From Escherichia coli (GTDB lineage: Bacteria; Pseudomonadota; Gammaproteobacteria; Enterobacterales; Enterobacteriaceae): DNA of 64,000 bases. The stretch is taken from assembly GCF_003019035.1 (NCBI RefSeq), contig NZ_CP027447.1; one strand, given 5' to 3'. Shown here one piece after another: positions 57,514 to 58,677 of this stretch (positions within the stretch are counted from its first letter, which is position 1; each line of letters opens with the position of its first letter). Under the pieces are notes generated by a model that saw only the letters and a program-made list of their open reading frames with translations, had not been told where the DNA came from and ran no database searches. A program made the position numbers and the translations under genes.

Positions 57514-58677
57514 ATGGCTAGAGTCTCTCTTTCATGGGCATTGATTCTTGGTCTTTTAGCCGGTATCGGCCCGATGTGTACCGATCTTTATTTGCCGGCT
57601 TTGCCGGAGATGTCTGAGCAACTGGCGGCAACCACGACCATAACGCAATTAACCCTGACCGCATCACTGATTGGTCTTGGCGTCGGACAACTGTTATTTG
57701 GCCCTCTGAGCGACAAAATAGGGCGTAAACGTCCGTTAATCTTGTCGTTGCTATTGTTTATTGTTTCTTCCATTTTGTGCGCGACAACGAACAATATTTA
57801 CTGGCTGGTGGTCTGGCGTTTTATTCAAGGGATCGCGGGGGCGGGTGGTTCGGTGCTCTCTCGTTCTATTGCTCGTGACAAATATCAGGGAGTAACGTTG
57901 ACCCAGTTTTTTGCGCTGTTAATGACGGTGAATGGCCTGGCACCGGTGTTGTCGCCAGTGCTGGGCGGGTACATTGTTAGCACTTTTGACTGGCGCACTT
58001 TATTCTGGGTAATGGCTGAAATTAGCACCGTACTGTTGCTGGGCTGTCTGTTATTTATTAATGAGACCTTGCCAGAAAATAAAAGGGGCTCATCATTGCT
58101 ATTAACCGGACGAAGCGTGGTGCAGAACCGCCGTTTTATGCGCTTTTGCCTGATTCAAAGTTTTATGCTGGCCGGTTTGTTTGCATATATCGGCTCTTCG
58201 TCGTTCGTGTTGCAGAAGGAATTTGGCTTTAGTCCAATGCAATTTAGCCTGGTGTTTGGCCTTAACGGCATCGGACTTATCATTGCTTCATGGATCTTCT
58301 CGCGCCTGGCGCGACGGATTAACGCGATGACATTGTTGCGAGGTGGCCTGATAGCGGCAATTTTGTGTGCATTGCTCACGGTCTTATGCGCATGGATACA
58401 ATTGCCCATTCCGGCACTGGTGGCATTATTTTTCACCATCGCATTTTGTAGCGGCATCGGCACTGTTGGCGGGGCAGAGGCTATGAGTGCAGTAGGGACG
58501 CAGGAATCTGGAACGGCGTCTGCGTTGATGGGGATGAGCATGTTTGTCTTCGGCGGTATAGCCGCGCCATTGTCGGGAATTGGCGGAGAAACACTGTTAA
58601 AAATGAGTCTGGCAATTACGGTGTGTTATACGCTGGCATTGCTGGTTGCTCTCACCAGAATCGACAATCAAAAGTAA
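57514..58677 (+). CDS. MFS drug efflux transporter (Bcr/CflA-like, DHA1 family)
   Basis: ORF track 387 aa; 12-TM profile; MFS motif GPLSDKIGRKRP; 8 nt after OMF stop. Confidence 0.8.
   Translation: MARVSLSWALILGLLAGIGPMCTDLYLPALPEMSEQLAATTTITQLTLTASLIGLGVGQLLFGPLSDKIGRKRPLILSLLLFIVSSILCATTNNIYWLVVWRFIQGIAGAGGSVLSRSIARDKYQGVTLTQFFALLMTVNGLAPVLSPVLGGYIVSTFDWRTLFWVMAEISTVLLLGCLLFINETLPENKRGSSLLLTGRSVVQNRRFMRFCLIQSFMLAGLFAYIGSSSFVLQKEFGFSPMQFSLVFGLNGIGLIIASWIFSRLARRINAMTLLRGGLIAAILCALLTVLCAWIQLPIPALVALFFTIAFCSGIGTVGGAEAMSAVGTQESGTASALMGMSMFVFGGIAAPLSGIGGETLLKMSLAITVCYTLALLVALTRIDNQK

Follow-up and report, generated by a model that had tools for sequence, protein, structure and literature searches.

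What does it mean that a gene for a major facilitator superfamily (MFS) transporter lies directly behind the genes of a tripartite resistance-nodulation-division (RND) pump? We addressed this question for a 64,000-nucleotide (nt) stretch of the Escherichia coli contig NZ_CP027447.1 (the whole stretch is called the window below), in which such a gene closes a run of co-oriented efflux genes between fabI and sapF. We are highly confident that this gene is eefD, which comes fifth and last in the known operon eefR-eefA-eefB-eefC-eefD. This operon occupies the fabI-sapF site in E. coli outside phylogroups A, B1 and C, and no evidence contradicts the identification of the locus as eefRABCD. The finding is correct but already known, the operon having been published and experimentally studied (PMC12817139, PMC12482432). 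The checks that the original prediction (an earlier reading of the window from its sequence) had proposed, namely mapping of the operon, a survey of its conservation and deletions made singly and in combination, are already available in these two papers, according to which the name eefD reportedly dates from the 2008 SMS-3-5 genome paper. In the most likely reading, EefD is a 12-helix antiporter of the inner membrane that works in its own right and shares its regulation with the RND pump.

Five co-oriented genes, in the order TetR regulator, adaptor, RND permease, outer-membrane factor and MFS transporter, are present at the fabI-sapF site in place of ycjD (Table 1). In E. coli K-12, which lacks the block, homology to the window ends at 50830 and restarts at 58718, and ycjD sits in between. 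When the window was compared with complete genomes, the 8.9-kb block was 100% identical to that of E. coli strain SCU-301, and the RefSeq annotation of this identical strain agrees on the flanking genes fabI and sapF. The eefD product is listed in RefSeq as WP_000135018.1, ‘multidrug effflux MFS transporter’. The window also matches eefRABCD of the strains SMS-3-5, ATCC 25922 and ATCC 35218 in site, gene order and strand, EefR operator and a 387-residue MFS protein encoded last; no difference was detected in this comparison, which was made by published description and not by direct alignment.

At a coverage of at least 80%, the complete block from fabI through the TetR, adaptor, RND, outer-membrane factor and MFS genes to sapF was found in 2037 of 5426 complete E. 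coli genomes (~38%), always between fabI and sapF, and the E. coli copies of the locus are at least 95% identical to one another. Searched for singly, eefD and eefB each occurred in 2043 of the 5426 genomes, which agrees with the report that any E. coli genome with one eef gene has the whole operon (PMC12817139). According to Pugh et al. (PMC12817139), eefRABCD is found in phylogroups B2, D, E, F and G and in none of A, B1 and C.

Table 1. Features of the eef locus and its flanks in the window. Profile cut-offs, here and in the text, are the curated subfamily or equivalog bit scores of NCBIfam.
Feature	Position	Strand	Basis
FabI	49919-50707	-	Passes equivalog cut-off
Promoter-like site of eefR (TTTCCA, 16-nt spacer, TATAAT)	51105-51132	+	Best plus-strand score in the region, 10 of 12 positions
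EefR operator palindrome, TGAGAACGATCATTCTCA	51142-51159		Identical to the published 18-bp palindrome
eefR, TetR-family repressor, 188 aa	51185-51751	+	RefSeq start in SCU-301; TetR N-terminal DNA-binding region
Terminator-like hairpin eefR-eefA with T-rich tail, GGGGGATATTAATCCCCC then TTATTTCATT	51772-51789	+	Consensus scan and folding
eefA, RND periplasmic adaptor, 373 aa	51900-53021	+	TIGR01730, 275 bits (cut-off 94.9); start as in RefSeq
eefB, RND permease, 1035 aa	53021-56128	+	TIGR00915, 1553 bits (cut-off 940)
eefC, NodT-type outer-membrane factor, 457 aa	56132-57505	+	TIGR01845, 372 bits (cut-off 210)
eefC stop, Shine-Dalgarno sequence and 8-nt spacer, TAAGGAATAAT	57503-57513	+	Sequence read
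eefD, 12-helix DHA1 (Bcr/CflA-type) MFS efflux transporter, 387 aa, ATG start	57514-58677	+	TIGR00710, 282 bits
Hairpin in the 47-nt eefD-sapF spacer	58682-58717		13-bp stem
SapF, convergent with eefD	58725-59531	-	Passes equivalog cut-off

The eef genes are alike in GC content and tightly packed. As the original prediction had it, the MFS gene begins 8 nt after the stop codon of the outer-membrane factor gene: the TAA of eefC (57503-57505) is followed by 8 nt (GGAATAAT) and the ATG of eefD. Because this 8-nt junction carries an AAGGA Shine-Dalgarno sequence that overlaps the eefC stop codon, translation of eefD may be coupled to that of eefC. The TAAGGA core and the 8-nt gap recur in E. albertii, E. 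whittamii and Escherichia sp. MOD1. The earlier statement that no terminator intervenes held up as well: the junction (57480-57530) is no more structured than shuffled sequence (-6.6 kcal/mol, z = +0.89), and a consensus scan returned neither a terminator-like site at the junction nor a plus-strand promoter-like site in the 3′ part of eefC. The nearest plus-strand terminator-like matches, at 57064 and 57721, are weak stems of 5-8 bp that fall within coding sequence. With a 1-nt overlap between eefA and eefB, gaps of 3 nt (eefB-eefC) and 8 nt (eefC-eefD) and an unstructured last junction, the sequence is compatible with a single five-gene transcript.

Published experiments agree with the view of eefD as the co-transcribed last gene. 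Reverse-transcription PCR (RT-PCR) on cDNA gave a product across every eef junction, meaning that all five genes are co-transcribed, and deletion of eefR raised the expression of eefA 83-fold, eefB 28-fold, eefC 43-fold and eefD 27-fold; the host of the RT-PCR, quantitative RT-PCR and RNA-seq experiments was a derivative of ATCC 35218 (PMC12482432). The same paper places the -35 and -10 elements and the transcription start in the fabI-eefR spacer, where we find the promoter-like site, its TATAAT at 51127-51132 and the operator immediately downstream. As the published data show, one promoter upstream of eefR drives all five genes, and EefR bound to the palindrome just downstream of the -10 element represses the operon, the loss of EefR derepressing every gene.

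Binding of EefR to the 18-bp palindrome was demonstrated by electrophoretic mobility shift assay and point mutation (PMC12482432), and the exact 18-mer, TGAGAA-N6-TTCTCA, is present upstream of eefR in the window. With the N5 spacing that the discussion section of the paper gives, the palindrome has no match in the window; the true spacer is 6 nt. A longer eefR reading frame from 51086 is unlikely to mark the true start because it would begin upstream of both promoter and operator. In each of the eight other eefR loci examined, the operator precedes eefR by 40-43 nt, with one mismatch in one of them (L002). It is also found upstream of eefA in Klebsiella and Raoultella, both of which lack eefR: in Klebsiella quasipneumoniae (L043, 2100-2360) and Raoultella terrigena (L046, ~2133) the exact operator (TGAGAATGATCATTCTCA) remains and the eefR reading frame is gone. 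The same regions upstream of eefA keep the eefR promoter, the ribosome-binding site and the terminator-like hairpin (GGAACATCTGTGTTCC then TTTTTT), which looks like a clean deletion of eefR that left an orphan operator behind.

Hairpins with a T-run occupy the position equivalent to the eefR-eefA hairpin of the window in Kluyvera intermedia (L005), in the Kluyvera eefR-eefD spacer (L049) and in Klebsiella, and RT-PCR detected some read-through across this hairpin (PMC12482432). This suggests an attenuator, whose partial termination would keep the levels of regulator and pump different. As a separate observation, the inverted repeat TTCTC ACCCTG GAGAA at 51880-51895 overlaps the eefA ribosome-binding site; it consists of pentamers of the EefR operator half-sites in swapped order and may be only a Shine-Dalgarno region. 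A genome-wide motif search did not report a second EefR site (PMC12482432).

At the other end of the operon, the hairpin that eefD was said to share with sapF is indeed strong on both strands: the plus strand folds with -27.7 kcal/mol (z = -5.4) and the minus strand with -28.3 kcal/mol (z = -5.8), values that none of 200 shuffles equalled. Because it has no U-run on the eefD strand (GCAAAACAC), we read it as a shared hairpin and not as a canonical intrinsic terminator for eefD; the sapF strand has a weak U-run. It may serve as the terminator of the operon. The same stem arms with another loop are found in eef-negative K-12 between ycjD and sapF (L052, ~4758-4800), and the K-12 and window stems differ by a compensated C:G to T:A pair (CATCCTGA/TCAGGATG against CATTCTGA/TCAGAATG). 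Because the stem is kept in K-12, it belongs to the sapF 3′ end and is under structural constraint. A terminator brought in with the eef island was likewise rejected, the stem beside sapF in K-12 making it a backbone feature.

The protein encoded by eefD fits the Bcr/CflA-like class to which it had first been assigned, scoring 282.1 bits on TIGR00710 (Bcr/CflA; cut-off 200.9) over residues 7-378. Because it stays below the equivalog cut-offs for TcaB (316 against 475 bits), Bcr (PRK11102, 229 against 303) and EmrD (163 against 479), its sequence places it in the Bcr/CflA subfamily and not among the orthologs of a named pump. EefD aligns over its full length with the 12-helix transporters EmrD (2GFP; residues 10-361) and MdfA, and only over its N-terminal half (residues 29-191) with EmrB structures of tripartite pumps. 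It carries motif A (GPLSDKIGRKRP) and a motif-C-like APVLSPVLGG, and a rough hydropathy profile fits about 12 segments, so that the features of a twelve-helix transporter with motifs A and C are all present. EefD is about 30% identical to Bcr (PMC12482432), and its binding cavity was reported to differ from that of MdfA (PMC12817139).

Experiments on EefD alone agree with a self-sufficient pump. EefD was classified as an MFS pump of TCDB family 2.A.1.2, and deletion of eefD slowed ethidium efflux in ATCC 25922 (PMC12817139). In DH5alpha without acrB, a host without EefA and EefC, pBReefD alone conferred 4-fold resistance, pBReefABC conferred 8- to 32-fold resistance and pBReefABCD gave the same pattern as pBReefABC (PMC12482432). 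EefD would thus act as an autonomous inner-membrane antiporter, presumably proton-driven, that moves amphipathic compounds from the cytoplasm or the inner leaflet into the periplasm. EefABC is a pump apart from it, tripartite and MexAB-OprM-like, and exports compounds through the outer membrane; the top matches of EefA are adaptors of the MexA and AcrA type (403 and 392 bits). The two systems would share a regulator and a transcript without forming a physical complex, and any cooperation between them would pass through the periplasmic pool.

Several points weigh against this reading or parts of it. A promoter inside eefC may exist, being compatible with both the consensus scan and the RT-PCR, and the eefD transcript may end elsewhere than at the sapF hairpin, which lacks a U-tract on the eefD strand. 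The two experimental studies are in conflict: Pugh et al. (PMC12817139) found the minimum inhibitory concentration unchanged for EefD and an effect on efflux rate only, whereas the Virulence paper (PMC12482432) reported 4-fold changes, and the published studies therefore disagree on whether EefD or EefABC alters antibiotic susceptibility at all. Proton coupling is presumed from the family.

Outside E. coli, we sampled the locus by a genome scan with EefB and by exact-protein look-ups of EefD homologs, covering about a dozen loci. The EefB scan gave 41 loci, mostly distant RND paralogs (Marinomonas, Ignatzschineria and others), and missed Klebsiella; the Klebsiella, Raoultella and Kluyvera loci were found through the look-ups. 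The complete unit occupies the fabI-sapF site, with an 8-nt junction, in E. albertii, E. whittamii and Escherichia sp. MOD1. In Kluyvera intermedia, eefRABCD adjoins murQ-like, phosphotransferase-system (PTS) and EamA genes, and K. quasipneumoniae and R. terrigena carry eefABCD without eefR at this same murQ-side site. A further eefRABCD locus (L053) has an 18-nt junction and lies at a third site, flanked by RpiR-like and LysE-like genes. Kluyvera genomosp. 3-like genomes (L049-L051, ~7250-9164) have, at the murQ site, the operator and eefR followed directly by eefD, without eefABC. Dryocola carries eefRABC without eefD, and Affinibrenneria has eefABC only. Among 35 more distant EefB relatives (46-65% identical), none had an EefD-like gene within the up to 7 kb examined on each side. 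The MFS gene is thus conserved with its RND neighbors in Escherichia, Klebsiella, Raoultella, Kluyvera intermedia and L053, and is missing from the Dryocola and Affinibrenneria loci and from the DNA examined around the distant relatives.

Protein identities to the window drop in parallel for all five genes across taxa, being 74% (EefR), 84% (EefA), 90-94% (EefB), 87% (EefC) and 82% (EefD) for L053 and 79% (EefA), 87% (EefB), 74% (EefC) and 68% (EefD) for Klebsiella; EefB of Raoultella is also 87% identical. Together with the uniform GC content, these parallel identities argue that eefD is an old integral passenger and not a recent neighbor. The pump is orthologous to the H-NS-silenced eefABC of Klebsiella aerogenes and K. 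pneumoniae. In K. quasipneumoniae the eefD ortholog follows directly downstream, as in the window, and the Klebsiella and Raoultella loci differ from it in the missing eefR reading frame with retained operator, in their chromosomal site and in a 45-48 nt eefC-eefD spacer. The eef cluster of K. aerogenes has been described as lacking eefD (PMC12482432).

The eefC-eefD spacer holds an 8-bp GC-rich hairpin in Klebsiella (L043, 7964-7983) and Raoultella (L046, 7962-7981). In K. intermedia (L005, 6585-6680) it contains an insert of ~90 nt, in which the second hairpin resembles a repetitive extragenic palindromic element (GCCGGA...TCCGGC). The junction has been remodelled repeatedly, the genes never being parted by the changes in the spacer.

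The modules of the locus can be lost independently. Because the Kluyvera eefR-eefD pair sits at the site of its eefABCD and eefRABCD relatives, the repressor and the MFS pump persist as a pair without the RND pump, and parsimony at the shared murQ-side locus suggests that eefABC was probably lost by deletion and not gained by insertion. A comparison by eye of the Kluyvera eefR-eefD spacer with the eefR-eefA spacers of K. intermedia and E. coli and with the eefC-eefD junctions of E. coli, Klebsiella and K. intermedia gave no recognisable remnant of such a deletion. The Kluyvera eef loci are not mentioned in the two eef papers (PMC12817139, PMC12482432).

Two assemblies labelled E. coli (L054 and L055; L054, 3314-4528) carry a lone gene for a 404-residue MFS protein that is 76% identical to EefD. 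It lies ~1 kb downstream of a Tn3-family transposase gene and upstream of gapA-like, tryptophan permease and tryptophanase genes, and could be an EefD-type pump gene that was mobilised. Its solitary position, like the Kluyvera eefR-eefD pair, speaks for an EefD that works alone.

That plasmid-borne copies would show the operon itself to be mobile was considered and, on two records, rejected. Three plasmid-labelled E. coli records with EefD are present in PLSDB. Two of them (L058, NZ_CP141085.1, 385 kb; L059, CP054253.1, 253 kb) contain the neighborhood rnb-yciW-fabI-eef-sapFDCBA-ymjA-psp and are typed as non-mobilizable; the third is a 4.9-Mb ‘plasmid’. Because the first two records combine a chromosomal neighborhood with a non-mobilizable type, they look like chromosomal segments, and the published claim of plasmid carriage warrants caution.

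Which relation between EefD and EefABC does this distribution favor? Apart from an autonomous, co-regulated EefD, the reading that survives best is one of the two proposed originally, a two-step pathway for a common substrate, here taken as dedicated and obligate, in which EefD acts at the inner membrane and EefABC carries the substrate from the periplasm to the outside. Neither step would be of use by itself, which would account for the joining of the genes in one operon. The genes share one transcript and one repressor (PMC12482432), their linkage is kept at differing sites in Escherichia, Klebsiella, Raoultella and K. intermedia, and the substrate lists overlap in sanguinarine, chloramphenicol, tetracycline, erythromycin, clindamycin and fusidic acid (PMC12482432) and in ethidium (PMC12817139). 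EmrD, MdfA and Bcr, which share fold class, size and family with EefD and align with it over the full length, offer a similar model, in which an inner-membrane pump feeds the periplasm and an RND pump takes over; unlike eefD, their genes are monocistronic and not linked to RND genes. Single-component inner-membrane pumps reportedly feed AcrAB-TolC (Tal and Schuldiner 2009; Lee et al. 2000). An obligate pathway, however, would lead one to expect a multiplicative effect, which is missing from the combined-expression data (PMC12817139, PMC12482432); when eefABC and eefD were expressed together, ethidium accumulation fell only slightly and without significance (PMC12817139). The modules also occur apart in nature (eefR-eefD in Kluyvera, eefRABC in Dryocola, eefABC in Affinibrenneria), and the 35 distant EefB relatives are without a neighboring EefD-like gene. 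The dedicated pathway is unproven, the published data showing no synergy, and we consider it possible but on the unlikely side.

In a related proposal, EefR and EefD would form an evolutionarily stable sensor-pump core, to which EefABC is an optional outer-membrane extension, for the dedicated export of a physiological substrate, synergy appearing only with that substrate at native expression. The substrate, which would matter to the B2, D, E, F and G lineages, might be an alkaloid-like cation from the host or its diet, or else an endogenous metabolite. We consider this proposal unlikely.

That eefD is an unrelated read-through neighbor, adjacent by accident, seems improbable. Some Eef-type operons do lack eefD (Dryocola, Affinibrenneria), overexpression gave no synergy (PMC12482432) and, in mdtABCD, the job of MdtD/IceT differs from that of MdtABC (PMC4462101). 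Against an accident, eefD is attached at three chromosomal sites, co-diverges with eefABC and is never lost separately in E. coli. Kluyvera without eefABC still has eefD directly behind eefR and the conserved operator, which indicates that the stable partnership is one of regulator and MFS pump and not a positional accident.

The mdt operon also bears on the original remark that an MFS gene in an RND operon is not a standard arrangement. The remark is only partly fair, since mdtABCD-baeSR of E. coli K-12 is a precedent, its MFS gene mdtD/iceT being dispensable for MdtABC resistance (PMC4462101). In both operons the MFS gene is co-oriented with the co-transcribed RND pump genes and lies immediately 3′ of them, a likeness of architecture and not of homology. 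For eefD, dispensability to the RND pump is suggested by the like behavior of pBReefABC and pBReefABCD (PMC12482432). MdtD is a larger MFS transporter of a different subfamily, and the mdt operon has two RND genes and no outer-membrane factor gene and is controlled by the two-component system BaeSR and not by a TetR repressor.

The second mechanism proposed originally, that the MFS pump uses the same adaptor and outer-membrane factor, calls for EefD to dock with EefA and EefC as a second tripartite pump that shares parts with the RND pump. As in eef, an MFS transporter is encoded beside an adaptor in EmrAB-TolC and EmrKY (the TolC of EmrAB being encoded elsewhere), and these systems use 14-helix DHA2 transporters and EmrA-type adaptors. 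EefD, in contrast, reaches 76 bits on the DHA2/EmrB model TIGR00711 (cut-off 230; residues 29-189), and its match to EmrB reflects ordinary similarity among MFS N-terminal domains; EefA reaches 46 and 30 bits on the EmrA models (cut-offs 391 and 563). The gene order, the precedent of tripartite MFS pumps (EmrAB-TolC among them) and the partial EefD-EmrB match notwithstanding, docking is therefore very improbable, EefD being a 387-residue, 12-helix DHA1 protein that is active alone in K-12 without EefA and EefC (PMC12482432) and is kept in Kluyvera without them, EefA being of the AcrA/MexA type, and the separable modules (eefR-eefD in Kluyvera, eefABCD in Klebsiella and Raoultella, eefRABC in Dryocola) arguing against a physical complex of MFS pump and adaptor.

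Elsewhere in the window, a two-gene accessory islet on the plus strand (26055-27395), between rluB and cobO, encodes a predicted 340-residue lipoprotein (signal ending in LLMLSGC) and a 102-residue protein. The islet is present in 844 of the 5426 complete E. coli genomes, both genes are annotated as hypothetical, and searches against NCBIfam and PADLOC gave no match. Other elements are ordinary features of this E. coli region: a frameshifted ferritin-like gene at the yciF position (~13538-13928) and a YkgJ-family gene fragment (~11959-12048), both from the RefSeq annotation of the identical strain, and, from Rfam, the small RNA STnc180 (35184-35396, plus strand) and the trp leader (21132-21225, minus strand).

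For the biology of E. coli, eef adds a seventh RND system, limited to those phylogroups from which most extraintestinal infections arise. Because loss of the repressor can lead to multidrug resistance, the operon is relevant to the surveillance of resistance, a case that has already been made in print. The chromosomal appearance of the plasmid-labelled records tempers the published concern about spread by plasmids. What the comparison across genera adds is that the MFS and RND genes form modules that can be separated, both under the control of a single conserved operator.

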